From positions 256,001 to 320,000 of the forward strand of contig CBEUCH010000001.1 in NCBI GenBank assembly GCA_965541585.1: DNA of 64,000 nucleotides. The letters run 5' to 3'. The position numbers and the translations under genes are program-made. Shown here in pieces: positions 16,787-56,856 of the stretch; position 1 is the first letter of the stretch; every line of letters starts with the position of its first letter. Source of the DNA: an uncultured bacterium. GTDB taxonomy: Bacteria > Zixibacteria > MSB-5A5 > UBA10806. The notes under the pieces were generated by a model. It was not told the origin of the DNA. It made no database searches and saw only the letters and a program-made list of their open reading frames with translations.

Positions 16787-16836
16787 GATTTTTTGAAAGA
16801 CTCAAAGGACGGAGACGATCCGGAAGGAGATCTGTC

Positions 16837-19718: not shown

Positions 19719-19754
19719 GAATGAGTTTTCAGTCTTGCTAAATCGGGGAGTTTT

Positions 19755-21385: not shown

Positions 21386-21398
21386 ACCCGGAGAAACG

Positions 21399-22007: not shown

Positions 22008-22548
22008 AGGTTTGGCCGTGGTCGCGGTCACGGCTCTGGTTATTTTCATAGGCTATTCATTGTTCAGAGTCTACTATTGGGCGCCCGGGCAGGAGCATGG
22101 CGGAGCAGGTGCATCAGTGACTCTGGAGGAAAACATTGCGTTGAAAGCCTCCATAGACACGCTTGAGACGATGTGGAACGATCGTCAAAACTATGTTTTC
22201 AGGTTGGCGCAGGATCCGTTACATCTTGGACGCGTGATAAAGAATTTTGAGTACGCCAAGGCCGGCCAGTATGAATCGGAGGAGGAAGACGTAATCAGAC
22301 TATCCGCCACCGTCATAGACGACAATCCGAAAGCCATTATCAAATATAGCGGTAAGAGTTATGTGGTGCAGGTGGGTGATATGATAGGCAAGAATATCAA
22401 GGTATTGAAAATAGAAAAAATGCAGGTCATTATTGACAACCGGGGCAAGAGAATGGCGCTGATGAATAAGCCGATATCGGGTTCCGGGAATTCTCTGGAG
22501 GGTTCTGCTTATTCCAACAACTCCAAAAACACCATCTACAATTATTGA
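21985..22548 (+). CDS. PilP/GspC-like protein
   Basis: Lies between pilO and pilQ. Contains DPL and IRLSATV..KAII..YVVQVGDMIG..KVLKIE. Has a TM anchor rather than a lipobox. Confidence 0.7.
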   Translation: MNQESIFKGLAVVAVTALVIFIGYSLFRVYYWAPGQEHGGAGASVTLEENIALKASIDTLETMWNDRQNYVFRLAQDPLHLGRVIKNFEYAKAGQYESEEEDVIRLSATVIDDNPKAIIKYSGKSYVVQVGDMIGKNIKVLKIEKMQVIIDNRGKRMALMNKPISGSGNSLEGSAYSNNSKNTIYNY

Positions 22549-22555
22549 ACATGAT

Positions 22556-24106: not shown

Positions 24107-24150
24107 GGAAATTTAGAATCTCGGAAACTCTAAATGACCAGGAGGATCCC

Positions 24151-26955: not shown

Positions 26956-26976
26956 TTTGAATATTAGAGAGGATTG

Positions 26977-28680: not shown

Positions 28681-28761
28681 ATCCGCGCTGTTTTCCCGAA
28701 GGGCCTTAGGGAATTCTCATAAATCTCTACCATCAAATGCTGCTAAACGAGATTAGAATTT

Positions 28762-41094: not shown

Positions 41095-41956
41095 GCTTGA
41101 ATATTTCTCCGTCGTTGCGCTGATTTTCGTATTAAATCTCATTCCCTACAGATTGGCGCTTTTAGTCGGGGATATAATTGGCTTTCTGGGCTTTTCCGTC
41201 CTTAGAATCCGGAGGAAAGTCACCCTGGATAATCTGAAAAAGTCGTTCAAAGATCAATTCAGCGATCAAGATTATGTGAGAATTGGCGCCAGATCATACA
41301 GGTACATAGCCCGGGGGATGATAGAATATGGGTTGTTTCCAACACTTAAGAAGAAAAATCTTCAGAAATTCTTAACCATACAGGGGTTGGAGAATCTTCA
41401 GAAGATCAGCGGCGGGGGCCGGGGGTGTGTGTTGGTAGCTGGCCATTTCGGAAGCTGGGAGCTCATGGGAGCTTTTGTGGCTGCAAACGGCTGGCCCATC
41501 GATTACCTCGTGGGAGAACAGCATAATATTCTGGTTAATAGATTAATGAACAATCATCGCCGGATGTTCGGGATCGGCTTGATCGAGATGGGAGTCGCAG
41601 CCCGGGGAGTGATTAGGGCGGTTCGCAACGGCCGCATGGTATGCATGCTCTCGGATCAGGATGCCGGTTCCGACGGTGTGATAGTAGAGTTTCTTGGCCG
41701 GCCCGCATCCACCCCCAGAGGGCCGGCGGCATTTGCATTGAAAACGGGTGCGCCTCTGGCCTGTGGCTTCATTGTTAGAGAAGGATCCAAGCAGAGAATT
41801 GTGATAGAGCAACCCTTCGATTTCACTCCCACAGGGAACAAAGACGCAGATATCAAACAATTAACGCAGGCATATACCAGCCTGCTGGAGAAATACGTCA
41901 GGGAATACCCCGATCACTGGTTCTGGCCTCACCGGCGCTGGAAATCGACGTCGTGA
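41075..41956 (+). CDS. lipid A biosynthesis acyltransferase (LpxL/HtrB family)
   Basis: Motifs GHFGSWE, LSDQD, EFLG and PDHWFWPHRRWK. Confidence 0.88.
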   Translation: MKKIKHRLEYFSVVALIFVLNLIPYRLALLVGDIIGFLGFSVLRIRRKVTLDNLKKSFKDQFSDQDYVRIGARSYRYIARGMIEYGLFPTLKKKNLQKFLTIQGLENLQKISGGGRGCVLVAGHFGSWELMGAFVAANGWPIDYLVGEQHNILVNRLMNNHRRMFGIGLIEMGVAARGVIRAVRNGRMVCMLSDQDAGSDGVIVEFLGRPASTPRGPAAFALKTGAPLACGFIVREGSKQRIVIEQPFDFTPTGNKDADIKQLTQAYTSLLEKYVREYPDHWFWPHRRWKSTS

Positions 41957-44286
41957 TTGCCCAAAATCGATCAATCTTCTCCGGACGTCCAGCGTTGGTT
42001 ACCCTCCTTTTATACATAGCCGGTATATTCCTTTCACTGCAACTTGAGGTGCATTATCTGATCCCCCTGACTCTGACTGTAGCATCTTTAATTGTCGTTA
42101 TCTATGTTTATTTGAAAGAAGCCGGGAAATGGATAGTTTGGTCTGCCGCTTTGCTTCTGGTCTTTCTGGGCTGGTCAAACACGAATTTGTCCACCGGGTC
42201 GTTCCCCCCTAACCATATCAAGAACCTCGCCGATCTGGGTGGAATGGTAGAGTTGGCAGGCCGCGTAGTTGAAGAACCGGATATCAGGGAAGATAGAACG
42301 TATTTAGTTGTGGAGGCCGATTCCATTTCAATCGGGCGATACTGGATTCCGTCCATGGGCAGGGTCCGGGTGAAAGTAAACAACGGCGGCAGTCGTTACA
42401 ATCACGCGGATGTCGTATCATTAACCGGCTACCTGTACGAGCCTAAAGGGCCGAGAAATCCGGGTGGTTTCGATTATGGCGCCTACCTCCGGGCCAGGGG
42501 TATATTCGCCGCCATGTCTGTCAGCGGCCCCCATTCTGTTACAGTAATTGAAAAGGGGCAGTCATTCTTATCGACAGTTGTGACACCATTGAGGAGCTAT
42601 CTTATATCGAAGACCAGGGAGCATTTATCACCGGTACCGGCGGCTATCTTATCCGGTTTCATTCTGGGAGAAAGGCGAGATATCCCTGAGGAATATCAGA
42701 CACTTTTCAGGAACACCGGTACACTTCATCTGATGGCCGTATCCGGCTCTAACGTTGCAATCGTGATAGCGATTTTTGCATTTCCTCTGGCATTCTTTGG
42801 CCTCCCGCGAACAATAAGAATTATATTACTTCTGGGGGTCATCGTCTTCTTTGCGATCTTGACTCGCCTGGAACCATCGGTGGTTAGAGCGTCTATAATG
42901 GCCTCCGTGGGGCTTTTGGCCTACGGCTGGATTCGGAAACCGGATTATATCAATGTACTGGGCTTCGCCGGCCTGATAATGTTAATATGGAGACCGATGC
43001 ACATTTTCGATGTCGGCCTGCAACTATCATTCGCTGCGACATTCGCAATAATATATGCATTACCCCACATTTTGAGCTGGCTGTCGTTTCTAAGCCGGAG
43101 AAAATTACGATGGTTAACGTGGATCCTGGTGATCTCTCTCAGCACCGTGGCCGCTCAAATGGCGGTTATGCCGCTTCTGGCACGATATTTCAATAACGTG
43201 CCGCTGGTCGGTGTGGTGGCCAATATCCCCGTCGGTATTCTGGCTGGTTTATCCACCGTGGCCGGTGTCGCATTCTATTTTTTGACATCTCTCGGTGGCT
43301 GGGTGTCCAGTATTGCGGCGGCACCCCTGGAGTTGATCCTCCATATTGTGATCTATTTATTGAAATTCTTTTCATCGCTTCCACATGCCAACATAAAGGT
43401 TTCATCTCCCGGATGGCCGCAAATCGCTCTCTATTGGGTATTATTATATGTAGTATATGAAATGTTCATCCGACGTCGGACAAGCAGGACAGGGATTATA
43501 GCCGTTCTGGCAATGTTCAGCATCGTTGTCTGGTCTGGTCTTGCCGAAAGCAGGCCCTCGTGGAAGGTGGAATTCGTCGAGATTGGACGGAACCGCGCCT
43601 GGATATTTTCTGATAAACGAGGCACCACAATCGCCTCCTACGATTGTTATAGATCGGAGGATAATCCCAATGGAGCGTTGATACCTCACATCCTGGATTT
43701 CTATGGTGGGCGGCTTGATTATCTTTTTTCTAATACAGCGGATTCTCCCGAAGTGCTGGAGCTAAAAGAGATATGTTCGTCGAGGCTATTCCCTGCCGAC
43801 AGCGTTATTTATCTGCTAAACCGTCAGTCGAAAGGCGCAGATGAAACGGGAGATAATCTCGCGGGTGAGGGTCTTCCCCCGAACATTAAGGTTGTATGGG
43901 GTGAACCCGATAATAGAGAAGAAGAGAAGAATACTCTTCCTGCTCTGCAGATTGATGCAGGGGATTGCATTTTATTATTTGCGGGGTGGTCTGATATACG
44001 AATTTTAGCAGGGTTTCAAGCCGATGAGAAGGTGAGACTTCTGGAGATGCCATGGAGCGCTTATTCACAAAGCCTATGCCGAAATCTGATAAGCAGCCTG
44101 GATCCTGAAGTGACTATTTTCTCACCGGATCGCCTGTCGAATATCATGCCCCGAGCCAGAGAGGAGCTGACCCATTCGGAGGATAGGCTCTATTCGACGT
44201 CAATTTGCGGTGGATTTGAAATAGCTGAATTCGGGTCTGAGTTGATGGTCAGGACAATGAGAGAAGTCGTCAACGAGAGGGAGTAA
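41953..44286 (+). CDS. comEC: DNA uptake channel ComEC/Rec2
   Basis: OB domain (PRNPGGFDY) and competence domain (GTLHLMAVSGSNV, PSVVRA, GLQLSFAA). The C-terminal MBL-like domain lacks HxDxDH. Confidence 0.88.
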   Translation: MIAQNRSIFSGRPALVTLLLYIAGIFLSLQLEVHYLIPLTLTVASLIVVIYVYLKEAGKWIVWSAALLLVFLGWSNTNLSTGSFPPNHIKNLADLGGMVELAGRVVEEPDIREDRTYLVVEADSISIGRYWIPSMGRVRVKVNNGGSRYNHADVVSLTGYLYEPKGPRNPGGFDYGAYLRARGIFAAMSVSGPHSVTVIEKGQSFLSTVVTPLRSYLISKTREHLSPVPAAILSGFILGERRDIPEEYQTLFRNTGTLHLMAVSGSNVAIVIAIFAFPLAFFGLPRTIRIILLLGVIVFFAILTRLEPSVVRASIMASVGLLAYGWIRKPDYINVLGFAGLIMLIWRPMHIFDVGLQLSFAATFAIIYALPHILSWLSFLSRRKLRWLTWILVISLSTVAAQMAVMPLLARYFNNVPLVGVVANIPVGILAGLSTVAGVAFYFLTSLGGWVSSIAAAPLELILHIVIYLLKFFSSLPHANIKVSSPGWPQIALYWVLLYVVYEMFIRRRTSRTGIIAVLAMFSIVVWSGLAESRPSWKVEFVEIGRNRAWIFSDKRGTTIASYDCYRSEDNPNGALIPHILDFYGGRLDYLFSNTADSPEVLELKEICSSRLFPADSVIYLLNRQSKGADETGDNLAGEGLPPNIKVVWGEPDNREEEKNTLPALQIDAGDCILLFAGWSDIRILAGFQADEKVRLLEMPWSAYSQSLCRNLISSLDPEVTIFSPDRLSNIMPRAREELTHSEDRLYSTSICGGFEIAEFGSELMVRTMREVVNERE

Positions 44287-44288
44287 AG

Positions 44289-45455
44289 TTGAGTTTCACC
44301 GGCAACCTTAAGACTGTATCTTTACCCGATATATTCCAACTGATTTTTTCTTCAAAAAAGACCGGGGTTTTAGATGTTGGCAAGGATAATTCTCTGCGTC
44401 AGATCTACTTCCGGAACGGGTCGTTAATATATGCATCCTCCAATGATGAACAGGATCTTTTCGGCAACCTCTTGCTGAAAAAGGGGAGAATCTCTAAAGA
44501 GGAGCTGAATAAGGTCCTTGTGAGCCAGAAAGAAGGCAAAAGGATAGGTGCGCTGCTGGTGGACAAAAAGCTTTTCACGCGAGAGGAAATATTCGAGTGT
44601 CTGAAAATGCAGATCGAGGAGATAGTCTACGGGTTGTTCGGGTGGAAGGACGGTGAATTCAAGTTCGAGGAGAATCAGGAGCCTCCGGCAGAGACGATCC
44701 AGACTGAACTCAATCCCATGAACCTGATAATGGAAGGTACCAGGCGGATCGACGAATGGGAGGAACTCAAAAAGGTCCTGCCTGCCGATAATACCACCGT
44801 GGAACTCGTGCGCGATCCCGCAATTAAATCCGAGGAACTTAAGATTTCCAAAGATGAAATCATTGTTATGGCTGTGATTGGCTCCGGCAAAGAGATATCC
44901 AAAATTCTTGAAGAGTGCTATCTGGATCGTTTTCTGACGTCGAAAGCGCTGGCAAACCTGTTTCGGATGAACCTGCTCAAACCGGTTAAGAAAGCGGTCC
45001 AGAAGCAGGGAATAGAGGATGAGCAGAAGACACTGGCAGAGGTTTTTGCACAGATATATTTAAGCAACCTTGGATATATTTTCGAGAACCTTCGCGAAAA
45101 GCTGGGAGACAAAGGGGAACGAATCATAGCCGAGACTTTTGAGGAGAACAAGGAATTCTACCCTCTGCTGAGCAGTGGTTTTTCCAAAAACGGCGGGCAA
45201 ATCAACTTCGATTTGTTTATAGAACTTTACAAAAAACTCCCTCAGGAAGCGAGGATCTGGAAAATTGTATCAAATTTCAACGCATTATTAAACGATTATC
45301 TCAACGTGGTCAGAAAGAGTCTGGGGAATAAGATCTACAGGCGATTGCTTTCGGAAATAAAGATCAATATCCAGAACACGATTAATAGGAATAGGCAACT
45401 ATCGCTTAAGTACGGCCTGGAGGAAGAGTTTTCTCGGGCGTTGCGGGATAGATAG
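44289..45455 (+). CDS. DUF4388 (PATAN-like) domain protein
   Basis: Motifs FTGNLKTVSLPDIFQL..KKTGVL, IYFRNG, LFGWKDGEFKF and LIMEGTRRIDEW. Confidence 0.85.
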   Translation: MSFTGNLKTVSLPDIFQLIFSSKKTGVLDVGKDNSLRQIYFRNGSLIYASSNDEQDLFGNLLLKKGRISKEELNKVLVSQKEGKRIGALLVDKKLFTREEIFECLKMQIEEIVYGLFGWKDGEFKFEENQEPPAETIQTELNPMNLIMEGTRRIDEWEELKKVLPADNTTVELVRDPAIKSEELKISKDEIIVMAVIGSGKEISKILEECYLDRFLTSKALANLFRMNLLKPVKKAVQKQGIEDEQKTLAEVFAQIYLSNLGYIFENLREKLGDKGERIIAETFEENKEFYPLLSSGFSKNGGQINFDLFIELYKKLPQEARIWKIVSNFNALLNDYLNVVRKSLGNKIYRRLLSEIKINIQNTINRNRQLSLKYGLEEEFSRALRDR

Positions 45456-45458
45456 GAA

Positions 45459-45824
45459 ATGAATAGATTAACAGTTTATCTTACGGTCGGTTTTATCTTA
45501 TTACACTTTCGCATGGCGGGAGCAGTATCAACTCATACTTATAACCTCGTGCAGGATTCGATATTCTTTATAATTTCTATGGGTTGTCTGATCCTGGCCC
45601 TCAGCATCTTTGTCACCCTCAAAGGCGGCAGCCTCGGAATTCCCTGGATTTTCTTTATCATAGGATTTGCAATAGCGGCCGTAAGCGGCGCCATCCATCT
45701 GCTCGATTTTTTCAAGATCGTGGTTTATGAATACGACTTACGGCTGGCCACTCTTATAACGAGTTGCGGGTCTATGTTATTTCTGTTTATCGGACTTTAT
45801 TTTTATAGAAGAGGATTACAATAA
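45459..45824 (+). CDS. small 3-4 TM membrane protein
   Basis: Hydrophobic 121-aa ORF containing LKGGSLGIPW, tightly packed in the operon. Confidence 0.65.
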   Translation: MNRLTVYLTVGFILLHFRMAGAVSTHTYNLVQDSIFFIISMGCLILALSIFVTLKGGSLGIPWIFFIIGFAIAAVSGAIHLLDFFKIVVYEYDLRLATLITSCGSMLFLFIGLYFYRRGLQ

Positions 45825-45843
45825 TATCCTTTTGACATAACTC

Positions 45844-45870
45844 TAAATATCCATCAGCGCTTGTCGATAA
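45844..45870 (+). promoter_or_regulatory. sigma28 (FliA/WhiG/SigF)-type promoter candidate
   Basis: TAAA-N15-GTCGATAA, compared with the consensus TAAA-N15-GCCGATAA. Confidence 0.6.
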
Positions 45871-45903
45871 TCTATATGGTTGAATTTAACTGTGGGTGGA
45901 AAT

Positions 45904-46761
45904 ATGTTTGAATCCGTAGAATTAGATGATCGCATTGCAAAATGCGAAAAAATCTTGGGCGCTGACGAAAACAGCCAGATTTTCGCAGCGCTTGCCGAGG
46001 CATATCGGAAAAGGGGAGACCTACAAAAAGCCCAGGATGTTTGTCTTCGGGGTCTGACGATTCATCCCAATTACGCATCTGCCAGGATCGTCATGGCCAA
46101 AATATTTATAGCTCATGAAAACTATGATTCCGCGTGGCAGGAACTCCAGAAAGCAACCGCCTCCTCGGGGAGGACGCGCACCATAGACATCCTGGAATCA
46201 GAGATACTGATCCGAAATGGGAAGAAAAGCGAGGCCAAGGCGATTCTTGAAAAACTCTATTCTTCAGACCCTGACGACGAGAGCATTAGGAATCTCATGA
46301 CATTGATCGGAGAAGAAAGACCCTCTCGATTGTCATCCGCAATCGTTATGCCGGATTTCCAGATTGGAAGAAGCAAGAAAAGGAAACTCACCTTATCCGA
46401 GGCGATCAGTATCCTCAAGGTTTTGCCCAGGGTCCTCGGCGTCGTAGTCGTCAACAACCAGGGATTAGCCCTTGAAGGTCGCTTCGATGGTTCATATTCA
46501 AGAGAAGAGGTGGCCGCTCTGTCAAAGGGTATTTATGACATAGCCAGGGCAGGAAGCTTAAGGGTAGGTATGGAGGAGACGAGGGAGATCCTGATAGAGA
46601 CGCAAGCGTCGAAACTCTGGATATTCAACAGGGAGAGTTTTTTGCTGGTCATTTATACCCGTGACGATGTCAGCATGGGTTCATTGAGATTGAAGCTCGA
46701 AGATCTATTGCAGAGAGTAGATCAATTGGGGACGAATGCAGAACAGGAGCGTGCAGGTTGA
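45904..46761 (+). CDS. TPR-repeat plus roadblock/LC7 domain protein
   Basis: TPR FAALAEAYRKRGDLQKA..GLTIHPNY, then C-terminal VLGVVVVNNQGL..VAAL..SMGSLRL. Confidence 0.8.
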   Translation: MFESVELDDRIAKCEKILGADENSQIFAALAEAYRKRGDLQKAQDVCLRGLTIHPNYASARIVMAKIFIAHENYDSAWQELQKATASSGRTRTIDILESEILIRNGKKSEAKAILEKLYSSDPDDESIRNLMTLIGEERPSRLSSAIVMPDFQIGRSKKRKLTLSEAISILKVLPRVLGVVVVNNQGLALEGRFDGSYSREEVAALSKGIYDIARAGSLRVGMEETREILIETQASKLWIFNRESFLLVIYTRDDVSMGSLRLKLEDLLQRVDQLGTNAEQERAG

Positions 46762-47204
46762 AAGCGACAAACCAGCTGGACAGGTTCCAGGTTTCGGTTG
46801 AGTATCTCACTGAATACTCTGGCGTCAAGGGGGCTGTCATAGCTGACCGTGAAGGCCTGGTGGTCGCCACCAGTCCCAGGAAAGGTTTTGATGCTGAGAT
46901 TTGCGCGGCCATTGGATTGGACTTAGTCGAGATTATAGACAGAAACCTGGTCAGGCTGATAGATCCTGGATGTAAGTTCCTATCGGTCAAAACCGGTAAG
47001 GACTGGATCACGGTGGCGCAAACGTCGATCTTCTATCTGATTGTAATGGCGGACCGAAAGGCGGACGACCTTATAAACATTCGTATTTCCAGATCATTAG
47101 ATATGATCTCGTCACATATGAAGGAAAAATACCCGGCCCTTCTGTTTTCCGACGAGCCGGCGGAGCAAAAATCGGTGAAGAGCGTGGAGGCTACACATGT
47201 ATAA
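46758..47204 (+). CDS. roadblock/LC7 domain protein
   Basis: GVKGAVIADREGLVV..ICAA. Confidence 0.8.
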   Translation: MKATNQLDRFQVSVEYLTEYSGVKGAVIADREGLVVATSPRKGFDAEICAAIGLDLVEIIDRNLVRLIDPGCKFLSVKTGKDWITVAQTSIFYLIVMADRKADDLINIRISRSLDMISSHMKEKYPALLFSDEPAEQKSVKSVEATHV

Positions 47205-47535
47205 TGTTCTTGGCGAATTAAACAAAACCTCCGGGGTCAGAGGATCCATGTTGGTGGGTACCGATGGCATAATCATCGCTGCCGATTTGGACTCCCAACT
47301 CGAGGACGAAACTGTCGGGGCCCTGGCGGCTTCAATTGTTTCAAACGTTTCGAAGGCTATGGGAAAGCTGAATAAGCAAAATCCCGATCGCATAACGATC
47401 GAAGCGGACCAGGGTAAGGTATTCCTTAATGATGCAGGTGTGGGAATATTGGCTGTGATAACCGATCCTGCGGTAAATGTTGGTATGGTGAGGTTGGAAA
47501 TCAAAAACGCGATCTCCAGGATAAAAGCGGAGTAG
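47197..47535 (+). CDS. roadblock/LC7 domain protein
   Basis: GVRGSMLVGTDGIII..VGALAA..NVGMVRLEIK. Confidence 0.85.
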   Translation: MYNVLGELNKTSGVRGSMLVGTDGIIIAADLDSQLEDETVGALAASIVSNVSKAMGKLNKQNPDRITIEADQGKVFLNDAGVGILAVITDPAVNVGMVRLEIKNAISRIKAE

Positions 47536-47551
47536 AAGGAATAAAAGCCTT

Positions 47552-48670
47552 ATGGCATCGATAAATTACGCATTTAAGGAGATAATCTCAAAGATCGTCT
47601 ATTACGGCCCCGGACTTTCCGGGAAAACGACTAATCTGCAGTATGTCTTCAAGAAAGTGCCGTCCGATACCAGGGGGGAATTGATAAGTCTTGCCACTGA
47701 TGCCGACAGGACGTTGTATTTCGATTTTCTGCCCGTTAACGTGGGGACTATTCGGGGGTTTGCTACCAAGTTTCAGCTTTATACCGTACCCGGCCAGGTC
47801 TACTACAATGCTACGCGCAAGTTAGTGTTAAGGGGGGTGGATGGTCTTGTTTTTGTGGCAGACAGCCAGCCGGATAAGATGGAAGAAAATAAAGAATCTC
47901 TCCGGAATCTGAAAGATAATCTCGAGGAGTATGGCTACGACATGAGTGAGTTGCCGATGGTGATCCAGTATAATAAGCGGGATCTTCCGAATATTTCTGA
48001 GATAGACGAACTGGAGAGGAATTTAAATCCGGGAGGATTGCCATATTTTGAGGCGGTTGCTGTAACAGGCGAGGGCGTCTTTAAGACTCTTAAGACGATA
48101 AGCAAAATGGTCCTTGACGAGGTCCGAAAAAGCTCTGAATCAACACCGAAAATCGTGAAATCCCGGCCAGCGGATGTTGCAGCTCCGGAATCGTCACCAC
48201 AACTATCATCGGAGAAAACGGATCAAGCGCCCGTTCAGGCCTCTGAGCCCCGGCGCGTCACGCCGGGAATCATGGCCGAGTCCGACACGCTTGCGAATGT
48301 GGTGGTTTCCGATAGTCCTGATCAGAAGCAGAAACCCGTTGCGGAGCCCGTTGAGGAGGGTACCGATTCAGTTATCGAGCAGACTGTCCTGAAGGAAGAA
48401 AACAACGGAGCAACAAAAGAAGAGAAGACCGTGCAAGAATATCCCGATTCGGAGGATAACCGTGAAGCCGGGGATGATTCCCTGTATAAACCGTTCTATG
48501 GTGGTTTATCAGACAGCGACGGTTTCGATGAGGAGGCAACTCAGATTTCTGATCTCAGTCTAAAGAGCCCATTGCCGCTTGGTAAGCCGCAGATGGCCGA
48601 GAGCAGAAAGGTAAAAGGTAGAAAGGGTAAGTTAGGCTTCTTCAGTTTATTCAGGAAACGAAAGAAATAA
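47552..48670 (+). CDS. mglA: MglA-family small GTPase with long C-terminal extension
   Basis: Motifs KIVYYGPGLSGKTTN, DRTLYFDFLP, YTVPGQ, VADSQ and NKRD. About 180 extra residues end in KGRKGKLGFFSLFRKRKK. Confidence 0.92.
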   Translation: MASINYAFKEIISKIVYYGPGLSGKTTNLQYVFKKVPSDTRGELISLATDADRTLYFDFLPVNVGTIRGFATKFQLYTVPGQVYYNATRKLVLRGVDGLVFVADSQPDKMEENKESLRNLKDNLEEYGYDMSELPMVIQYNKRDLPNISEIDELERNLNPGGLPYFEAVAVTGEGVFKTLKTISKMVLDEVRKSSESTPKIVKSRPADVAAPESSPQLSSEKTDQAPVQASEPRRVTPGIMAESDTLANVVVSDSPDQKQKPVAEPVEEGTDSVIEQTVLKEENNGATKEEKTVQEYPDSEDNREAGDDSLYKPFYGGLSDSDGFDEEATQISDLSLKSPLPLGKPQMAESRKVKGRKGKLGFFSLFRKRKK

Positions 48671-48697
48671 TTTTATTAGGATACAAGGAGGTCACCA

Positions 48698-49183
48698 TTG
48701 TCTCAGGAGCAGCAGGTCCTTTATGAGGACCAGATAAAGAAGATCGACAAGGCCCTGACCCGGATTATCAAGGAATCCGAGGCCAAATGCGCTCTCCTGG
48801 TTGATAAGGACGGGCACCTGATAACTCGCCAGGGTTTCACCCATACTCTCGACACCACAGCGCTGGCAGCATTATTGGCCGGGAGTTTCGCATCGACCAA
48901 AGAGATCGCAAGACTGGTAGGGGAACCAGAGTTCTCGGTTTTATTTCATCAGGGTAAGCGGGATCATATACATATTTCATTGATTGGTGAACGGACCATA
49001 CTGGTGGTGATTTTTGATGACCGCACGACCATAGGCATGATCAGGCTTTACGCAAAAGAGGTCGGAGAGACTCTGAAGAGCATTCTCGAAAGCAGCCCGG
49101 AGAGTGCGGATGGCGAAATGGAACTGGGGGAAGAATTCTCTGATTCCGCCGATGCCAAGTTGGACGACATTTTCCAGGAATGA
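48698..49183 (+). CDS. mglB: MglB GTPase-activating roadblock protein
   Basis: Motifs ALLVDKDGHLI, DTTALAALLAG, ARLVGEPEFSVLFHQG, IFDDRTTIGMIRL and acidic tail LDDIF. Confidence 0.9.
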   Translation: MSQEQQVLYEDQIKKIDKALTRIIKESEAKCALLVDKDGHLITRQGFTHTLDTTALAALLAGSFASTKEIARLVGEPEFSVLFHQGKRDHIHISLIGERTILVVIFDDRTTIGMIRLYAKEVGETLKSILESSPESADGEMELGEEFSDSADAKLDDIFQE

Positions 49184-49233
49184 GGCTAAGGCCTCAAGGT
49201 TTCTCATCTTAGTTTAATCATTGGAGTTTCAGG

Positions 49234-50925
49234 ATGGCTCTTGAACTCGGCAAAATGCTGGTTAAGGCCGGCAAGATTACCGAGGACCAACTACAGCAAG
49301 CGCTGGAGGTGCAAGAAAGCGGCACTGGCAAGCTCGGTGAAATCCTCGTCAAGATCGGCGCTGTGCCCGACGAAAACATAATATCGGAGTTCATAGGAAA
49401 ACAGCTCAATATTGGCGCCCTGCGTTTAACTGATATTGAATTGAATCCCGAGATTGTCAAGCTGATTCCACATGACATTGCGAGCAAGTTCAACGTTCTT
49501 GCCATCTCAAAGCTTTACAAAACCCTCATAGTTGCCATCTCCGATCCCAATAATATATATGTACTGGATGCTATAAAATTTATAACGGGCTGCAATATTC
49601 AGCCGGTAATCTCACCGGAGAATACTATTTCAAAAGCTATCGAGACATATTATGACGATAGTAGCGCACTGAATGACATAATTAAGGATATGTCGTCCGA
49701 GCTGGAGGTTGTGGAGGAGACCGAAGATGATCTCTCGGAGCAGGATCTGCAGTCGCAGGTGCAGGATAAGCCGCTGGTCAAACTTGTGGACGGCCTGATC
49801 GCTGATGCCATTCGCAAGGATGCTTCCGATATTCATTTTGAGTGTTATGAGAAACGGATAAGAATTAGATATCGTATTGACGGCGCTCTTCAGGAGACGG
49901 CGCCGATCCCCTTTAAATATCGTGCGGCCATAGTCTCGCGAATGAAGATCATGGCCGATCTTGATATTTCAGAACGTCGCCTTCCGCAGGACGGTAGAAT
50001 CAAGGTCAAGCTGGGAGGAAGAACGGTCGATCTGAGGGTCTCGGTGCTGCCAACGATTTTCGGCGAAAAGGTGGTCATGAGGATTCTCGATCCCAAATCT
50101 CTGATGGTCGATCTGACCAAACTGGGATTTCCGGATCTGGCCCTGAAAAATTTCGACGATGTTATTCATCTTCCTTACGGGATGATCCTCGTGACCGGGC
50201 CTACCGGTTCCGGAAAAACCACCACTCTATATTCCGCGCTGAAAACGCTGAATTCGACCGATGTTAATATTATGACGGCAGAAGATCCGGTGGAGTTTAA
50301 TTTCGAGGGCATAAATCAGGTGCAAATCAGATCTGATATCGGTCTGACTTTTGCCGCCAGCCTCAGATCATTTTTGCGACAGGATCCGGACATAATAATG
50401 GTGGGTGAGATTCGCGATGGAGAGACGGCCGATATTGCGATCAAGGCCGCTCTTACCGGACATCTCGTCTTCTCGACACTGCACACCAATGATGCGCCAT
50501 CCACCATCAACAGGTTGGTGGATATGGGAGTTCCAACCTACCTGGTGGCCGCCTCTACGAAACTGATCATGGCCCAGAGGATGATTAGAAAGATTTGCGG
50601 TAATTGCAAGGAAGAGGTGGAGATCACCTCGGAGATGCTGGAAATGCTTCATCTGACCAAAGAAGAGGCAGCCGGATTGAAGATATTCCAGGGAAAAGGC
50701 TGCGGGCATTGCAATAACACCGGTTATTCGGGTCGGACAGGGCTTTTCGAGGTTATGCTCATTACTCCCATGATAGAAAAGATGATAATTCAGGGATCAT
50801 CGTCATCCGAGATCAGAGAGCAGGCGGTCAAAGAGGGAATGATGGCTCTAAGATCGGCGGGTCTCGAAAAGCTGAAAAATGGTATAACATCGCTTGAGGA
50901 GGTCGTCGCCGAGACTACCATCTGA
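49234..50925 (+). CDS. pilB: pilus assembly ATPase PilB (copy 2)
   Basis: MshEN-like LGKMLV/LGEILV, GPTGSGKTTT, TAEDPVE, FLRQDPD and two CxxC motifs. Confidence 0.94.
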   Translation: MALELGKMLVKAGKITEDQLQQALEVQESGTGKLGEILVKIGAVPDENIISEFIGKQLNIGALRLTDIELNPEIVKLIPHDIASKFNVLAISKLYKTLIVAISDPNNIYVLDAIKFITGCNIQPVISPENTISKAIETYYDDSSALNDIIKDMSSELEVVEETEDDLSEQDLQSQVQDKPLVKLVDGLIADAIRKDASDIHFECYEKRIRIRYRIDGALQETAPIPFKYRAAIVSRMKIMADLDISERRLPQDGRIKVKLGGRTVDLRVSVLPTIFGEKVVMRILDPKSLMVDLTKLGFPDLALKNFDDVIHLPYGMILVTGPTGSGKTTTLYSALKTLNSTDVNIMTAEDPVEFNFEGINQVQIRSDIGLTFAASLRSFLRQDPDIIMVGEIRDGETADIAIKAALTGHLVFSTLHTNDAPSTINRLVDMGVPTYLVAASTKLIMAQRMIRKICGNCKEEVEITSEMLEMLHLTKEEAAGLKIFQGKGCGHCNNTGYSGRTGLFEVMLITPMIEKMIIQGSSSSEIREQAVKEGMMALRSAGLEKLKNGITSLEEVVAETTI

Positions 50926-50928
50926 TAT

Positions 50929-50955
50929 TATAGTCCAGGTAATATTTGTCGATAA
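50929..50955 (+). promoter_or_regulatory. sigma28-type promoter candidate upstream of pilT copy 2
   Basis: TATA-N15-GTCGATAA fills the short intergenic gap. Confidence 0.5.
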
Positions 50956-50977
50956 TTAAGGGGGAGGAAATACATTT

Positions 50978-52084
50978 ATGATAACGCTTCGTGAACTTCT
51001 CGAATTGATGGTCAAGAGAAAAAGCTCCGACCTGCATATTACGGTTGGATCTCCGCCGGTTCTGCGGATTGACGGCAAACTGGTGAAAACCGATTATGAT
51101 GTTCTTACTCCTGAACAAACTAAGAAGCTGGCTTATTCGGTAATGAATGAGAGACAGCGTCAGAAATTCGAGGAGAATTCGGAGATGGATCTCTCCTTCG
51201 GTGTGGAGCAGCTTTCCAGATTTCGCTGCAACGTTTTCATGCAGCGAGGCAACGTGGCCGTGGCATTACGCCAGATTCCTCATATGATTCAAACGTTCAG
51301 CGAGCTGGGATTGCCCGAAGTGGTGCCGAAGTTGGCGGAGCTTCCCCGGGGGTTGATACTGGTCACCGGACCCACCGGATCCGGGAAATCGACCACGCTG
51401 GCGGCTCTTATTGATAAGATCAACGATGAAAGAAACCTGCATATAATAACAGTTGAAGATCCTATTGAGTATCTTCATAAGCATAAGAATTGCCTTATTA
51501 ATCAGCGAGAAGTTCACTCCGATACCAAGAGCTTTTCGGCATCGCTGAAATACGCGTTGCGGCAGGATCCGGATGTTGTTTTGATCGGTGAGATGCGGGA
51601 TCTGGAGACGATGGAGGCGGCGTTAACGATTTCGGAAACCGGCCACCTGGCATTCGCCACGCTGCATACTAACTCGGCGGCGGAGGCCGTCAACCGTATT
51701 GTGGATGTTTTCCCGACAAATCAGCAGGAGCAGGTAAGGGTTCAGCTATCATTTGTTCTGCAAGGGATAATAAGTCAGCAATTGATTCCGCGAATAGGCG
51801 GCGGCAGGGTGCTGGCTGTAGAGATACTGGTTGCGACGCCGGCGGTGAGGGCCGTAATCCGCGATGATAAGATTCATCAGATCTATTCGTTGATACAGGC
51901 CGGCCAGAAGTTCGGTATGAGAACCATGAATCAATCTATCTATGATCTTTATAAAAAGAAGAAGATCAATTACAACGACGCCATCGGTCGGTCATCCAAT
52001 ATCCATGAATTGGACGAAATGATTCAGAGACAGGGTCCGCAGGGCAGCGTAAAAAAAGGCCTTACATATCAGATTGAGAGGTAG
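50978..52084 (+). CDS. pilT: retraction ATPase PilT (copy 2)
   Basis: Motifs SSDLHI, GPTGSGKSTT, ALRQDPD and AVRAVIRD. Confidence 0.93.
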   Translation: MITLRELLELMVKRKSSDLHITVGSPPVLRIDGKLVKTDYDVLTPEQTKKLAYSVMNERQRQKFEENSEMDLSFGVEQLSRFRCNVFMQRGNVAVALRQIPHMIQTFSELGLPEVVPKLAELPRGLILVTGPTGSGKSTTLAALIDKINDERNLHIITVEDPIEYLHKHKNCLINQREVHSDTKSFSASLKYALRQDPDVVLIGEMRDLETMEAALTISETGHLAFATLHTNSAAEAVNRIVDVFPTNQQEQVRVQLSFVLQGIISQQLIPRIGGGRVLAVEILVATPAVRAVIRDDKIHQIYSLIQAGQKFGMRTMNQSIYDLYKKKKINYNDAIGRSSNIHELDEMIQRQGPQGSVKKGLTYQIER

Positions 52085-52087
52085 TCC

Positions 52088-53287
52088 ATGCCTGTATTCG
52101 AATATAAAGGAAAGACGCGTGGAGGAAAACAGGTCCAGGGTGAGCTGAAGGCTAAAAACAGGGCGGAGCTTGAAAGGCTTCTGAGGGCCAACAAGATCCT
52201 GGTGACAGGTGTTTCCAAAAAGCCGGCGCAGATTCAGATAAGGTTCGGTTCCGGCATAAAGAGGGTAGATATATCGAGATTCACAAGGCAGTTCGCCACC
52301 ATGATATCGGCCGGTTTGCCCATGGTGCAGTGCCTGGAGATCCTCGGCACGCAGATGGAATCAGCGGAATTCCGTAAGATTATCGTTATGGTCAAGGAAT
52401 CCGTGCAATCAGGTGCGACGCTTTCCGAGGCCTTGGGCAAACACAAGAAAGTTTTCGATGATCTATATGTCAATATGGTAGAGGCCGGCGAGATCGGCGG
52501 CGCCCTGGATACTATCCTGATTCGGCTGGCGCAATACAAAGAGAAGACCGACAAGCTGATCAGAAAGGTCAAGGGGGCTCTGGTTTATCCGATCGTGGTG
52601 ATGGTGGTGGCCATGGGTGTAACCTTCGCTATGCTGAGGTATATTGTCCCGATCTTCGCCAAGATGTTTTCCGGCCTGGGAGCTGAATTGCCGGCGCCGA
52701 CCCAGGTTGTTCTGAATATCTCTAATTTCCTGAAGGAAAACACGCTGCTGATTATATTCATTCTGGTGATCGCCGGCATTGCCTTTAAGCTGTTTTTGAG
52801 AAATCCCAAAGGAAGACTGATTTTCGATGGTTTCAAGCTGAAAATGCCGCTTCTGGGCAGTTTAATCAGGAAAGGCGCCATCTCCAGGTTCACTAGAACT
52901 CTTTCGACCCTTCTTTCGTCCGGCGTATCGATTCTGGATGCCCTCAGTATTACAGCAAAGACTTCGGGCAACATGGTTCTTCAGAATGCCATCAAGAAAT
53001 CAACGGTCTCGATTGCCGAGGGTGAAACCATCACCCAGCCTCTGAAAGAGGTCGGGGTCTTTCCACCAATGGTGACGCAGATGATCTCTGTAGGCGAGAA
53101 AACCGGCGGTCTCGACGAGATGCTCTCCAAGATAGCGGATTTTTACGATGACGAGGTTGATGCTGCCGTAGCTGCCTTAACGTCGATAATCGAGCCAATC
53201 ATCATAGTTTTCATGGGGGCCATGATCGGTTGTATACTTATTGCCATGTATCTGCCGATGTTCGATATAATCGGTCAAATCGGTTAA
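52088..53287 (+). CDS. pilC: platform protein PilC (copy 2)
   Basis: Motifs FTRQFATMISAG, GEIGGALD, GALVYP, GEKTG and IIEP. Confidence 0.94.
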   Translation: MPVFEYKGKTRGGKQVQGELKAKNRAELERLLRANKILVTGVSKKPAQIQIRFGSGIKRVDISRFTRQFATMISAGLPMVQCLEILGTQMESAEFRKIIVMVKESVQSGATLSEALGKHKKVFDDLYVNMVEAGEIGGALDTILIRLAQYKEKTDKLIRKVKGALVYPIVVMVVAMGVTFAMLRYIVPIFAKMFSGLGAELPAPTQVVLNISNFLKENTLLIIFILVIAGIAFKLFLRNPKGRLIFDGFKLKMPLLGSLIRKGAISRFTRTLSTLLSSGVSILDALSITAKTSGNMVLQNAIKKSTVSIAEGETITQPLKEVGVFPPMVTQMISVGEKTGGLDEMLSKIADFYDDEVDAAVAALTSIIEPIIIVFMGAMIGCILIAMYLPMFDIIGQIG

Positions 53288-53341: not shown

Positions 53342-55041
53342 ATGGATAAGTCAAAGAAATATAACCACTCGACGCCCGCCGATCGAAGTTTCTGGTTCTT
53401 ATCATTGCGATCGGTGATAATTCTATTGCTTTTCGGCTCCGGGCTGATCTTCCTGAGACCCTCGGAATTTAGCTATATACTCCTTGGCATTTATGGTTTT
53501 CTGGGAATCGTCTATTTTGTTTATAACGTTTCGGTAAAACATTATTCCGAGGAATTCGTCAGAAGCATCATAATAGCCCAGCTGGTTTTCGAGCTTCTTC
53601 TTGAGGGATTACTGGTTAACCATGTAGGAGGCAGCTTTTCACCGTTTACTTTATTCTTCATCATAAGCATCGTGGTGACCGCACTATATTTCCGTCTGCA
53701 GGGCTCGATACTGGTGGCCACTTCAGCCGGGCTTTTGTATTCTCTTCCTGTATTCTTCGATTTGTCGTTTATCTACGAGGGTCTAATCGAACCTCCGAGG
53801 TTGGCCGGGCTGGGCATCTCATCGGATGAAGCGTTCTATACCGTATTTCTGCATCTTTGCCTGTTTTACTCTTTCTCATTCATATCCGGATACCTGGCGC
53901 AGAATCTCTTCGTCACGACGCGGGAACTGAGGAGATTAAGAGTCGAGACCAGCGAAATCCTGGAGCAGATGCGTTCGGGCCTGCTGACTGTCAATGCCGA
54001 GAAACGAATCGTATATTTCAATAAAGCGGCCGGTGAAATCCTGGGGCTTGATCCCGGAGATGTGCGTGGTGGACATATTCTTAATGTGTTCGGGAAAGGC
54101 TGCAGAGAGTTTCGACGACGACTCGACGCTGCCCTGGATTATAAGCGGGCGGAAGACCGTACGGAAATCATCGTCGAACACCACCGAAGCGGCACAATCC
54201 CGCTTGGACTTTCGATATCCATTATAAGAGACGATGAGGAGGAGTTAAGAGGAATAATAGCTGTTTTTCAGGACTTGACGGAAGCCAAGAAACTTGAGGA
54301 ACGGATCAGGGCGGCCGATCGGCTGGCGGCGGTCGGCCAACTGGCAGCCGGCATCGCTCATGAAATCAGAAACCCGCTGGCATCGATATCGGGCTCGGTA
54401 GAGGTCCTGAAAGACGAACTCAATCCTGACGGTGATAACCTTCGCCTGATGCAGTTGATCTTAAAGGAGTCATCGAGGCTCAACACCATACTGACGGATT
54501 TTCTCAATTTCGCCCGCATAAACAGAAAATCCACAGATAGGAGTGATCTCAGCGTGGTGATTCCAGAGGTGATTGAACTCGCAGCAGGTGATAGCAAGAT
54601 CAATGATTCCGTTGAGATTACGCATAATCTGCATCAGCAAAATATCCTGGTGGCGGGTAGTGAGGATCAGATTAAGCAGATTCTCTGGAATTTGATTTTA
54701 AACTCCGCTCAGGCGATGGGGGGAAAGGTGGAGTGATCCGGATCTCCACCGAGAATTATTGTTCCGACGTGGGTATTCAAATGGTCAAGCTGATTGTAAC
54801 TGATGAGGGCCCGGGCGTTCCTGCCGGGATCAGAGATAAGATTTTCGACCCGTTTTTCTCGACCGGGCAGGATGGCACCGGTTTAGGGTTGCCGATTGTG
54901 GTTCGCCTCGTGGATTGCCTGGAGGGTAAAATCGACCTTGAATCTTCGGCGGAAACCGGCACGAGATTTTCGATATGCCTGCCCATAGAGCAGGCCAAAA
55001 AGAAGAAACCCAAAACGCTGCAAGAAGTTATGACAAGCTGA
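53342..55041 (+). CDS. pilS: PilS-like sensor histidine kinase split by a -1 frameshift (ORFs 53342-54736 and 54733-55041)
   Basis: ORF1 carries the TM region, PAS, H-box AHEIRNPL and N-box QILWNLILNS. ORF2 carries G1/F/G2 boxes DEGPG, FDPFF and GTGLGL. A -1 shift at 54721-54727 joins them. Confidence 0.85.
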
Positions 55042-55183: not shown

Positions 55184-55810
55184 ATGGCTAAGGATTTGAC
55201 TGCCAGACAGCGAGAGATCTTCGAGTTTATCAAGGGGATGATTCGCAGTAAGGGGCGGCCGCCATCCATAAGGGAGATCGGGGAGCAGTTCGCCATCCGT
55301 TCCACAAACGGCGTCAGGGCCGTTCTGGAGGCCCTGGAGCGCAAGGGGTATATCCGTCGAGATAGATACACATCCCGGGGAATTGAGCTTTTGAAAGAGG
55401 CCGACGAGATAGTGTCATCGGGGCGCCTCCGGGAGATCTTCTGGGTCGGTCGGGTGGCCGCCGGCACGCCGGTCTGGGCCGAGGAGAATATTGAGGGCAG
55501 TTTCCTCATAGACCGGGAATTCGTGCCGGGCGAGGAGGTCTTCTCGCTGAAGGTGCAGGGCGATTCCATGATCGACGCCGGCATATTCGACGGCGATTAT
55601 GTGCTGGTTAGAAAACAGCCCAACGCCGACCCCGGCGATATGGTGGTGGCGCAGATCGGCGATGAGGCCACGGTCAAGAAGTTTTTCCCCGAGAGAAAGA
55701 GAATCCGCCTGGAGCCGGCCAACACCGATTACGGCCCCATAATCATAGAGAAAAGCACCCCCGGGTTTTCAATCGCCGGCAAGGTGATCGGGTTGTTAAG
55801 GAGGATGTAG
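55184..55810 (+). CDS. lexA: SOS repressor LexA
   Basis: Motifs LTARQ, PPSIREI, LERKGYI, cleavage site VAAG, GDSM (Ser) and ATVKK (Lys). Confidence 0.96.
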   Translation: MAKDLTARQREIFEFIKGMIRSKGRPPSIREIGEQFAIRSTNGVRAVLEALERKGYIRRDRYTSRGIELLKEADEIVSSGRLREIFWVGRVAAGTPVWAEENIEGSFLIDREFVPGEEVFSLKVQGDSMIDAGIFDGDYVLVRKQPNADPGDMVVAQIGDEATVKKFFPERKRIRLEPANTDYGPIIIEKSTPGFSIAGKVIGLLRRM

Positions 55811-55879
55811 GGGGGAGCGGGAATATATGTTATTTGGGGGGTAATGTTTATATTTGGAATTGGATATTTTGTATGTATC

Positions 55880-56017
55880 GTAGGGGCGAGGTTACCTCGC
55901 CCCTACGGAAAAACCCAAATGGGGGTGTGATATGATTAATATGAGGATTGATATTATTCGGAGGGAATCCCCCTCTGCGGGTCGATCTGTCTGCCCGTAT
56001 GGGAGATCGACCCCTAC
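55880..56017. repeat. REP elements upstream of the RAYT
   Basis: GTAGGGGCGAGGT-T-ACCTCGCCCCTAC (55880-55906) and GCGGGTCGATCTG-[14 nt]-AGATCGACCCCTAC (55977-56017). Confidence 0.85.
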
Positions 56018-56056
56018 AGAATGTGGGAAGGGAATCGGTGAAGTGGAAGAAATGAG

Positions 56057-56644
56057 ATGAAAAGTGGGTCAAAACTGCCAAGAAAGCGATCAATACGATT
56101 GAAAGATTATGATTATTCGCAAAATAACGCCTATTTCGTGACGATTTGCACGAAAGATAGGTTACCGACGATAGATTCCGGCATTATTCGCGGAATTATC
56201 CAAAAAGCCTGGGAAAACCTTCCAAACCATTATCCCACAGTTATTCTGGATGAATTTGTGATTATGCCCAACCATGTGCACGGGATAATCATAATAAATG
56301 ATCAAAATAAATATGGCTTCTGTAGGGGCGAGGTTACCTCGCCCCTACGAAAGAAAATAACATTAGGCCAGATTGTGGCCTGTTTTAAATACCAATCGAC
56401 AAAATCAATAAATCAAATCCGCGGATCTATTGGTGTTCCATTCTGGCAGCGCAATTATTACGAACATGTAATACGAAACGATGATGATTTACATAAAACC
56501 AGAAAATATATCCGGGAGAATCCTTTGAAATGGGATCTGGATGAGGAGAATCCCAATAATATTTTGCAAGTAACTCGGGGGGCAACGTTAACCATGGGGG
56601 GTAAACATTGTACCAGGATATCGAGGAACAGGTCGATGTCATAG
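56057..56644 (+). mobile_element. REP-associated tyrosine transposase (RAYT, Y1/HUH)
   Basis: Motifs RKRSIRLKDYDY, YFVTICT, HUH IMPNHVHGII, FWQRNYYEHVIR and YIRENP. Contains an internal REP copy at 56322-56348. Confidence 0.9.
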
Positions 56645-56856
56645 CCATCTTCGAGACTGGTCGGATGCGGCCGATCAAGTTCCGGTGGAACGGACGGGCT
56701 ATCAAGATAAAAAAAGTCACCGGCGCCTGGAAATCGGATGTGGGGGCGCACAAGATCCGCTATTTCGCGGTGCTCGATTCGGCCTCTAATTTTTTCCAAC
56801 TCGCCTACGACGAGAGAAACACCGTCTGGGTTTTGAACAAGATATGGGTGGAATAA
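56608..56856 (+). CDS. small conserved-looking protein (DUF6504-like) upstream of dinB
   Basis: 82 aa with PIKFRWNGR..IKKV..W, RYFAV and FQLAYD..WVL. Overlaps the dinB start. Confidence 0.7.
   Translation: MYQDIEEQVDVIAIFETGRMRPIKFRWNGRAIKIKKVTGAWKSDVGAHKIRYFAVLDSASNFFQLAYDERNTVWVLNKIWVE

Follow-up and report, generated by a model that had tools for sequence, protein, structure and literature searches.

A Zixibacteria gene block predicted to encode an enlarged variant of the MglA/MglB polarity switch together with a type IVa pilus motor

The polarity module of Myxococcus xanthus is made up of MglA, MglB, MglC, RomR/RomX and RomY, with SgmX, FrzS and SopA as its outputs to the pilus extension ATPase PilB. 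Here we describe a gene block from an uncultured Zixibacterium that, judged from its sequence, is an enlarged variant of this known MglA/MglB polarity switch, with a function predicted in the control of type IVa pili (T4aP). The block lies in a stretch of 64,000 nucleotides (GenBank assembly GCA_965541585.1, contig CBEUCH010000001.1, positions 256,001 to 320,000), the whole of which we call the window. Coordinates below are window positions on the plus strand, where the entire block is encoded, unless another contig or strand is named.

In passages of PMC11580455 MglA-GTP is reported to stimulate T4aP formation in M. xanthus and to be bound by SgmX, a large protein with 14 tetratricopeptide repeats (TPRs). 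The route from MglA-GTP to the pilus motor is unresolved even in that organism, with SgmX described there as localizing PilB "by an unknown mechanism". The closest genomic precedents are found in PMC4316618 (Wuichet and Sogaard-Andersen 2015), parts of which define Group 1 MglA by an intrinsic arginine finger and a TVPGQ motif, report a PATAN protein with two roadblocks and MglA in Chloroflexus and Herpetosiphon neighborhoods, and list in Table S2 the Fibrobacter succinogenes gene Fisuc_0226, with mglA before mglB and an MglA of 313 aa. Where that paper deals with these modules, in the passages cited, it speaks of no pil gene linkage and of no membrane tail. The Zixibacteria locus resembles these neighborhoods in having PATAN beside mglA, two roadblocks per GTPase and an mglA-mglB order with a long MglA, and differs from those described there in its four roadblock domains, its TPR and membrane fusions and its direct linkage to pilB-pilT-pilC. 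It shares with the M. xanthus module an orthologous Group 1 MglA and an MglB with a C-terminal helix, an extra roadblock with an MglC-type Asp-Gly motif, a RomR-like receiver-linker-helix protein encoded elsewhere in the genome, and a canonical set of PilB, PilT and PilC with a PilS-like kinase after it. Unlike M. xanthus, it unites switch and motor genes in one co-oriented block with mglA first, adds to MglA (195 aa in M. xanthus) an extension of 118-454 aa that ends in a basic-aromatic tail, and has three extra roadblocks, of which one is fused to TPRs and one is usually membrane-bound. It also includes a PATAN protein, along with a membrane protein of small size, but no SgmX-sized TPR protein, in a genome without CheW.

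The block consists of ten open reading frames (ORFs) in the order PATAN (DUF4388), membrane protein, TPR:roadblock, roadblock, roadblock, mglA, mglB, pilB, pilT and pilC, followed by pilS. All ten lie on the plus strand with intergenic gaps of -8 to +55 nt (79 nt if the TPR gene begins at a conserved ATG at 45904). An original prediction made from the DNA alone had claimed a co-oriented, tightly packed ten-gene run, four roadblock domains around one Ras-like GTPase and mglA ahead of mglB. We recovered each of these features, with Robl_LC7 detected in four ORFs and mglA leading here as well as in colinear relatives. A scan of GTDB genomes with the MglA G domain confirmed 369 relatives, and since only the best 80 were retained the sample is skewed to close kin. 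Gene order, whose loss in relatives had been named as grounds for abandoning the prediction, is colinear in 80/80 of these loci as far as their contigs extend, and 53 of them contain the entire run from PATAN to pilC; the conservation of the block is therefore not due to chance. Directly after mglB comes pilB in 76/76 loci having both genes (median gap 45 nt), while in two loci lacking pilB the contig ends no more than 175 nt from mglB. In the phylum mglA was matched in 99 of 101 genomes, as one copy per genome except in one case where the gene is split over two contigs, and roadblock domains were matched in 149 of 151 genomes; two genomes (G053 and G089, each 96% complete) gave no match for either mglA or roadblock. 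Many loci labeled Ignavibacteria and one labeled Terriglobales interleave with Zixibacteria in the MglA tree, and we therefore read these names as depositor labels. The proposal of an MglA/MglB switch in a non-myxobacterial lineage is thus borne out by Group 1 MglA and MglB in Zixibacteria in an order kept across the sampled phylum. Promoter-like sites (32 in the region versus 22.2 ± 4.6 in shuffles) and terminator-like sites (23 versus 16.3 ± 4.1) gave no usable signal for the ends of an operon.

The G domain of MglA (aa 1-193, 47552..48130) matches M. xanthus MglA in a PDB search with an E value of 9e-79. Motifs G1, G2 and G3 are intact in 81/81 MglA sequences and G4 (NKxD) in 80/81, and the P-loop, the arginine finger beside the G2 Thr and TVPGQ as G3 are kept in all 81. 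These motifs class this orthologue of Myxococcus MglA as Group 1, although its length of 372 aa (313-649 aa in relatives) exceeds the Group 1 small-GTPase criterion of a single domain of at most 240 aa. Table S2 of PMC4316618 likewise includes long Group 1 members. The additional length resides in a C-terminal extension (48131..48670) of ∼180 residues here and 118-454 aa across the 79 complete homologues, two further proteins cut by contig ends having been left out. Most of the extension is an acidic, low-complexity linker, and its final 20 aa (about 48608-48667; KGKLGFFSLFRKRKK) form a basic-aromatic tail. When a tail was scored as at least two Phe/Trp and a net charge of at least +5 within the last 20 residues, 72 of the 79 homologues passed as opposed to 33 of the 2409 source-genome ORFs that are 150 aa or longer; because the homologues are related, the former count measures conservation and not 72 independent events. 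The tail is more conserved than the linker in 9/9 pairwise comparisons, and the mean maximal hydrophobic moment of the homologues is 0.55 in tails versus 0.35 in linkers. The tail resembles the membrane-targeting helix of MinD, which is basic, amphipathic and aromatic and binds anionic membranes, as well as the polybasic tails of Ras proteins. Composition and C-terminal position fit a MinD-type targeting sequence, and a PDB search with one tail found no match. Taken together, these properties suggest that the MglA tail is probably a membrane anchor. Look-alikes of the long MglA in Atlas include one cluster with Fibrobacterota as the commonest phylum, and a plasmid search for MglA returned a single Deinococcus mglB-mglA pair with no pil genes in the fetched stretch.

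MglB (48698..49183), the cognate roadblock regulator, scores above the Robl_LC7 cut-off and in a PDB search matches M. xanthus MglB at 3e-35 over residues 5-161, a span that includes the C-terminal helix. In a quick tree of the roadblocks (112 columns, Shimodaira-Hasegawa-like approximate likelihood ratio test [SH-aLRT] support) it clusters with Deinococcus MglB at support 99. D36 and G39, an Asp three residues ahead of an invariant Gly, are invariant in 30 sequences, and R115 is kept in 79/79. Our assignment of this protein as the orthologue of Myxococcus MglB places it in the coupled clade of GTPase-activating proteins (GAPs), and it would be expected to act as a GAP on MglA. According to part of PMC13408092, MglB alone is able to show both GAP and guanine nucleotide exchange factor (GEF) behavior.

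The three extra roadblocks, which we call RB1, RB2 and RB3 in gene order, are encoded by genes that overlap or nearly touch (gaps of -4 and -8 nt here, with medians of +10 and -14 across loci), and each forms its own group in the quick tree. RB3 (47197..47535, 112 aa, Robl_LC7 over cut-off) is the best conserved of them and carries an MglC-type Asp-Gly-Ile motif, with D23 and G24 in 80/80 sequences and I25 in 79/80. D23 and I25 match MglC D26 and I28, which form a modeled contact with MglB R115 in the account of PMC10329633 that we cite in part, and Asp-Gly is given as the signature of the MglC-type clade in passages of PMC4719450. The Asp directly ahead of the invariant Gly, an orphan-clade signature, is a weak test, as MglB of Zixibacteria also has Asp there. 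Of the FDI face that MglC turns to MglB, D and I are kept and F is not; of its KRR face for RomR, the equivalents of R106 and R110 are kept, and these are also present in MglB. A hidden Markov model (HMM) of true MglC orthologues scores RB3 at a mean of 30 bits compared with 13 for RB1, 7 for MglB and 1 for RB2, and in the quick tree RB3 sits on the side of MglC (SH-aLRT 91, unstarred, from 112 columns). The RB3 profile matches archaeal roadblocks ahead of MglB.

RB1 (45904..46761 from the conserved ATG; the ORF finder starts it at a TTG at 45880) is a fusion of 285 aa with both TPR and Robl_LC7 matches, in which a conserved N-terminal TPR domain (about residues 20-145) is followed by a variable linker and a divergent roadblock. 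The original prediction had named SgmX as the M. xanthus TPR protein and proposed a TPR adaptor here. A short fusion with TPRs limited to this one region and a roadblock of its own is not the 14-TPR SgmX, and we ruled out that identity. Such fusions are widespread, occurring in Atlas clusters (commonest phylum Gemmatimonadota) and in other lineages. A TPR:roadblock profile search returned at least 120 close relatives; in six of them the source name gives a taxon, which is Zixibacteria, "GN15" or unclassified. Starting from one of ten distant matches, a further search recovered only a near copy. Synteny outside the phylum was read in one other lineage, represented by 37 metagenome loci (L082-L118) found with a 10-sequence alignment of distant TPR:roadblock relatives. 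An MglC-type roadblock is also present in 31 of the 37, directly after the fusion where inspected, with pilQ in 21 and aroC in 26; neither mglA nor PATAN was detected in the fetched DNA of any of them. In L083-L117 the order is pilC-pilA-pilD-pilMNOPQ-aroC-aroK-aroB-TPR:roadblock-mglC, after which come a membrane ORF and a DivIC-family gene. That cluster resembles the Zixibacteria block in having a homologous fusion and then a stand-alone roadblock beside pilus genes, so a TPR:roadblock and roadblock pair in such a setting is not peculiar to Zixibacteria. It differs in the partner, which there is a true orthologue of MglC, and in the fetched DNA, which showed no mglA, mglB or PATAN. We also found a one-chain TPR protein with two roadblock domains (P0186), a natural fusion that would fit roadblock heterodimers.

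RB2 (46758..47204, 148 aa, PF03259 [Robl_LC7] over cut-off) is soluble in the window. In relatives it is usually about 300-350 aa long (57 complete and two cut loci of 79) and short in the other 20. The long form has a predicted N-terminal membrane domain, with 3-4 hydrophobic segments in 52/57. All short forms, that of the window included, fall on one side of a branch with support 92 and their nearest neighbor is of the long form, a pattern consistent with the membrane domain having been lost once, in this tree without outgroup. The branch that lacks this domain and retains the MglA tail offers a natural comparison. The RB2 profile matches archaeal roadblocks, dynein light chains and LAMTOR2 ahead of MglB and found no MglC in the PDB. 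The membrane domain that RB2 has in most relatives and the MglA tail are the two most unusual features of the locus, and both are absent from the original prediction. In the cited passages of PMC4719450, MglC has no detectable effect on MglA's GTPase activity and does not interact with MglA. By comparison we infer that RB1, RB2 and RB3 form a scaffold that positions MglB.

The PATAN protein (44289..45455, 388 aa; PF14332 at E 7.7e-36, NF053729) is the only one encoded in the genome. PATAN proteins beside mglA are said to have been noted since 2006, by Makarova et al., and we found no experimental test of their role there in the literature searched. A structural model (predicted local distance difference test [pLDDT] 81, predicted template modeling score [pTM] 0.49) contains an alpha-clip insert resembling MshEN at about aa 55-111 and a winged helix at about aa 166-237; its C-terminal domain is all-helical and without a clear fold match in whole-protein fold searches (best Z 7.7). 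In the model the insert superposes on the cyclic di-GMP (c-di-GMP)-binding domains of PilF-GSPIIB (8pdk, root-mean-square deviation [rmsd] 1.0) and MshE (5htl). We take the consensus of MshEN c-di-GMP receptors to be two tandem RLG-type motifs with Arg first. At the first motif position Arg occurs in only 3/53 PATAN proteins and in 0/41 PilB, where an acidic residue replaces it (at position 4, Glu in 39 proteins and Asp in two). This makes c-di-GMP sensing by either protein doubtful, and we rejected a confident assignment despite the fold and the NF053729 match. The genome encodes two full GGDEF domains. Part of bioRxiv 10.1101/2021.06.11.447907 reports that PATAN (DUF4388) domains bind PilB1 as well as PilC's N-terminal domain in Synechocystis two-hybrid assays, and by analogy the Zixibacteria protein is a candidate output adaptor to PilB and PilC. 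As in the cyanobacterial regulators PixE, PixG and LsiR described there, PATAN comes with an alpha-clip, and here it is encoded beside PilB and PilC; unlike them, it has no receiver, carries the winged helix and helical C-terminal domain, and is paired with a GTPase instead of a chemosensory kinase. Prediction of a complex between PATAN(1-236) and PilB(1-300), both supplied as alignments, scored 0.00 in two runs, which is evidence neither way. Between PATAN and the TPR gene lies a 121-aa membrane protein (45459..45824) with an N-terminal hydrophobic segment and three transmembrane helices predicted from hydropathy and no Pfam or NCBIfam match. A small membrane ORF occupies this position in 68/71 loci, and the other three have an in-frame HMM match there.

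The motor genes downstream of mglB are of canonical T4aP type. PilB, the extension ATPase (49234..50925), scores 724.7 bits with TIGR02538 against a cut-off of 675.65. The retraction ATPase PilT (50978..52084) passes the TIGR01420 cut-off with 504.6 bits, and the platform protein PilC (52088..53287) contains PF00482 twice, its best NCBIfam match being NF052606 (511 bits, below the cut-off of 700). A PilS-like sensor kinase follows in two frames (53342..55041), the first ORF with 6TM_PilS (weak), PAS and HisKA and the second with HATPase_c. The frame break, located near 54720 by tblastn, may be a real lesion or an assembly error; relatives have a single ORF of at least 550 aa in 48/51 loci. Each of pilB, pilT and pilC is present in three copies in the genome. 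The PilB encoded at 26974-28680 reaches 553 bits, under the T4aP PilB cut-off that the block PilB passes (the copy on contig C20 was left out of this scoring), and we therefore consider the block motor to be the canonical T4aP set and reject its earlier designation as a "second" motor set. Contrary to what had been supposed, the module is not self-contained either, because other parts are encoded elsewhere: pilM, N, O, P and Q-like genes on contig C8 (pilM and pilQ by tblastn, the others by position and inspection), two PilA-like pilins (best match the myxobacterial PilA model, below cut-off) with a prepilin-peptidase-like ORF on contig C33, and the RomR-like protein described below on contig C1. 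On these grounds the genome qualifies as having a type IVa pilus motor, with which the PilMNOPQ set presumably pairs.

Further pilus genes accompany this set. A separate complete type IV filament set at 14199-30015 comprises a pilin, pilT, two minor pilins, pilM/N/O/P/Q, pilB2 and pilC2, along with two paralogous proteins of 470-480 aa (weak DUF4900) and a 934-aa Big_1 (Ig-like) repeat protein. By inspection, a third PilB/PilC/pilin/secretin set is located at G000 C20:32661-43017, and a third pilT at C5:60097-61230 between accB-like and accC-like genes.

With regard to inputs, CheW was not found in the source genome (98% complete) and was unmatched in 33 of 101 genomes of the phylum, so the module persists without chemosensory arrays. 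A receiver protein encoded outside the window at C1:144053-145123 (L119:6054-7124), next to a rhomboid-type gene, is RomR-like by architecture and conserved in the phylum. The same arrangement of receiver, unstructured linker and conserved C-terminal helix is found in 20 of 30 fetched loci, 19 of them beside the same rhomboid-type gene, the remaining 10 being unrelated regulators. The phospho-acceptor position of this protein looks substituted here and varies among homologues. A TPR protein at C33:8-1126 (L120) precedes a tyrosine-autokinase-like gene on the contig that also has the two pilA-like genes; its N-terminus is possibly RomY-like, and a PDB search with it found nothing.

We propose that pilus assembly is gated in place or time by an MglA switch tethered to the membrane and acting through PATAN and/or TPR adaptors, and give this reading a probability of roughly 0.55. 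The phylum's single MglA/MglB switch would head a canonical T4aP motor operon and decide the site or timing of pilus assembly. By homology, MglA would cycle between GTP and GDP with its intrinsic arginine finger while dimeric MglB stimulates hydrolysis. Conservation of the basic-aromatic tail suggests that MglA attaches to the inner membrane by this tail on a long flexible linker. RB1, RB2 and RB3 may constitute a roadblock scaffold that places MglB, as MglC does, without acting directly on MglA. RB3 would bind MglB by its conserved Asp/Ile face, and the scaffold would be anchored in the membrane by RB2 in most of the phylum and possibly also by the small membrane protein. Where MglA-GTP persists, PATAN and/or the TPR domain could, by analogy, signal to PilB and PilC in place of SgmX. 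The output could be a reversible leading pole or merely a static on/off site.

Several observations weigh against this proposal. Gene linkage by itself is no demonstration of coupling, comEC adjoins the block and may allow a role in DNA uptake, and, given the genomes without a CheW match, a Frz-like reversal input is not universal. The invariant Trp and Pro by which RomR-C is defined (PMC3441718, in part), the Trp being required for binding MglC according to passages of PMC12719032, were not seen in the C-terminal helices of the RomR-like proteins. The window MglA tail has a modest hydrophobic moment, 0.40 versus 0.38 in its own linker, and in this branch the tail therefore looks more polybasic than amphipathic. 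The comparison of RB3 with MglC is also imperfect. Where MglC has K104, 80/80 RB3 sequences carry Leu or Met, and neither a single RB3 sequence nor a 30-sequence profile matched MglC in the PDB at E≤1, while a true MglC orthologue from locus L085 matched MglC (7ct3) at 8e-21 as a positive control. An RB3 model has Z scores of 20.4 with Asgard roadblocks and 18.8 with both MglB and LAMTOR2 compared with 12.4 for MglC 7ct3 (rmsd 3.0). On these three results we rejected RB3 as a clear MglC orthologue. Given the likeness in motif and HMM score, RB3 may work like MglC, yet without detectable orthology we do not file it as MglC. The comparison of the roadblocks with MglB and MglC that had been suggested with the original prediction identified the fourth roadblock as MglB and no extra roadblock as a clear MglC.

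RB1, RB2 and RB3 could instead form heterodimers on the membrane and, in the manner of Ragulator, serve MglA directly as exchange factor or co-GAP in place of RomR/RomX/RomY, an extension of the heteromeric GAP/GEF partners put forward in the original prediction. Their overlapping or nearly touching genes and separate groups in the tree agree with such a complex, as do the membrane-type RB2 in 59/79 loci and the RB2 and RB3 profiles that match archaeal roadblocks before MglB, RB2 also matching dynein light chains and LAMTOR2; GEF or GAP complexes built from different roadblocks are moreover a known theme in what we cite of PMC9481161. We regard this as improbable: MglC, the one extra roadblock studied, shows no interaction with MglA in the passages of PMC4719450, both GAP and GEF behavior can come from MglB alone in those of PMC13408092, the genome still encodes a RomR-like protein, and the likeness to LAMTOR2 is generic fold similarity. 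A further reading combines a polybasic-aromatic tail of its own that holds MglA on the membrane, like the Ras-family proteins of eukaryotes though non-lipidated, a membrane-anchored RB1-3 hetero-oligomer that with MglB switches MglA as a Ragulator analogue, and PATAN signaling to PilB, all in one chemosensory-independent operon; as a whole we find this combination doubtful. Ragulator/Rag and the actinobacterial conservons (AGPS) share with the locus several roadblocks, a membrane anchor and a small GTPase, as an analogy only; unlike Rag, MglA has no fused roadblock domain, and it carries Group 1 instead of Group 2 motifs. Conservons consist of a CvnA kinase, CvnB, CvnC (DUF742) and a Group 2 GTPase in the cited part of PMC13343842. 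The block has Group 1 motifs, no DUF742 match and no CvnA-type kinase, and membership is ruled out.

A different target is suggested by comEC, which encodes the DNA-uptake channel (41953..44286; PF03772 and PF13567), ends 2 nt ahead of the PATAN gene and lies upstream of PATAN in 51 of the 62 loci with more than 1.5 kb of upstream sequence. MglA might activate the motor where ComEC imports DNA, in competence and not motility; the absence of any detected CheW in the source genome and the lexA gene after pilS in the branch of the window would agree with this. The comEC gene is context and not an invariant part of the block, however: it was not found upstream in 11/62 loci with an intact module, and it is itself the last gene in a run of housekeeping genes for a hydrolase, a peptidase and a lipid A acyltransferase. 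Moreover, the Group 1 MglA proteins studied in the literature searched act on motility or predation, and we consider a role in DNA uptake unlikely. The block could also be a super-operon in which two older modules merged, a pilus TPR:roadblock scaffold and an MglA/MglB/PATAN switch with some other polar target such as gliding-type motility, secretion or division, so that MglA does not control the block PilB. The other lineage indeed has TPR:roadblock and MglC beside pilMNOPQ with mglA and PATAN undetected in 37/37 loci, PATAN-MglA-MglB neighborhoods occur in many phyla without mention of pil genes in the available part of PMC4316618 (whose Table S2 does not list pil genes), and the genome has two further PilB/PilC sets. 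The mglB-pilB junction is nevertheless unbroken in 76/76 loci while upstream comEC was lost in some, and functional precedent from M. xanthus and Bdellovibrio points to pili; to a merger of this kind we assign a small probability.

Much of the locus is already known in its parts, namely MglA/MglB, a GTPase with two roadblocks, the PATAN neighbor of mglA, the reversed gene order and the binding of PATAN to PilB. The claim of an undescribed system therefore stands only in part: the mglA-mglB order and the PATAN linkage were catalogued in 2015 (PMC4316618, as far as cited), whereas the locus as such, an MglA membrane tail and a membrane-bound roadblock in an MglA system were not found in the literature searched, which lay mostly outside subscription journals. 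Within this same scope no paper pairs Zixibacteria with MglA or roadblock proteins, and the sole match for MglA and an amphipathic helix deals with Asgard Arf proteins, in which the helices are N-terminal (PMC11914678, in part). The parts belong to known families, which limits the novelty of the whole. What the operon offers is the joining of GTPase, regulator, candidate scaffolds, PATAN and motor in one conserved unit, and thereby a short list of soluble proteins for reconstitution. We know of no cultured host of the operon. If our reading is correct, a self-encoded tail on a bacterial Ras-like GTPase together with a membrane-bound roadblock would represent a second design for spatial control, and both features bear on how roadblock-GTPase systems acquired their membrane anchors.

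Some neighboring genes deserve mention. Downstream of pilS, positions 55184-58055 contain lexA, one ORF for an IS200-like transposase, another with a weak DUF6504 match and a gene for a DinB-type polymerase, and lexA adjoins pilS in close relatives. A tamB-tamA pair lies between the two pilus clusters of the window (30835-36241), with a CMD-family protein encoded upstream; sgmX and Bd2492 adjoin tamAB-like genes. On the minus strand, a lipoprotein-like ORF at 3559-4443 combines a Hint/intein-like domain with a following fibronectin type III domain.

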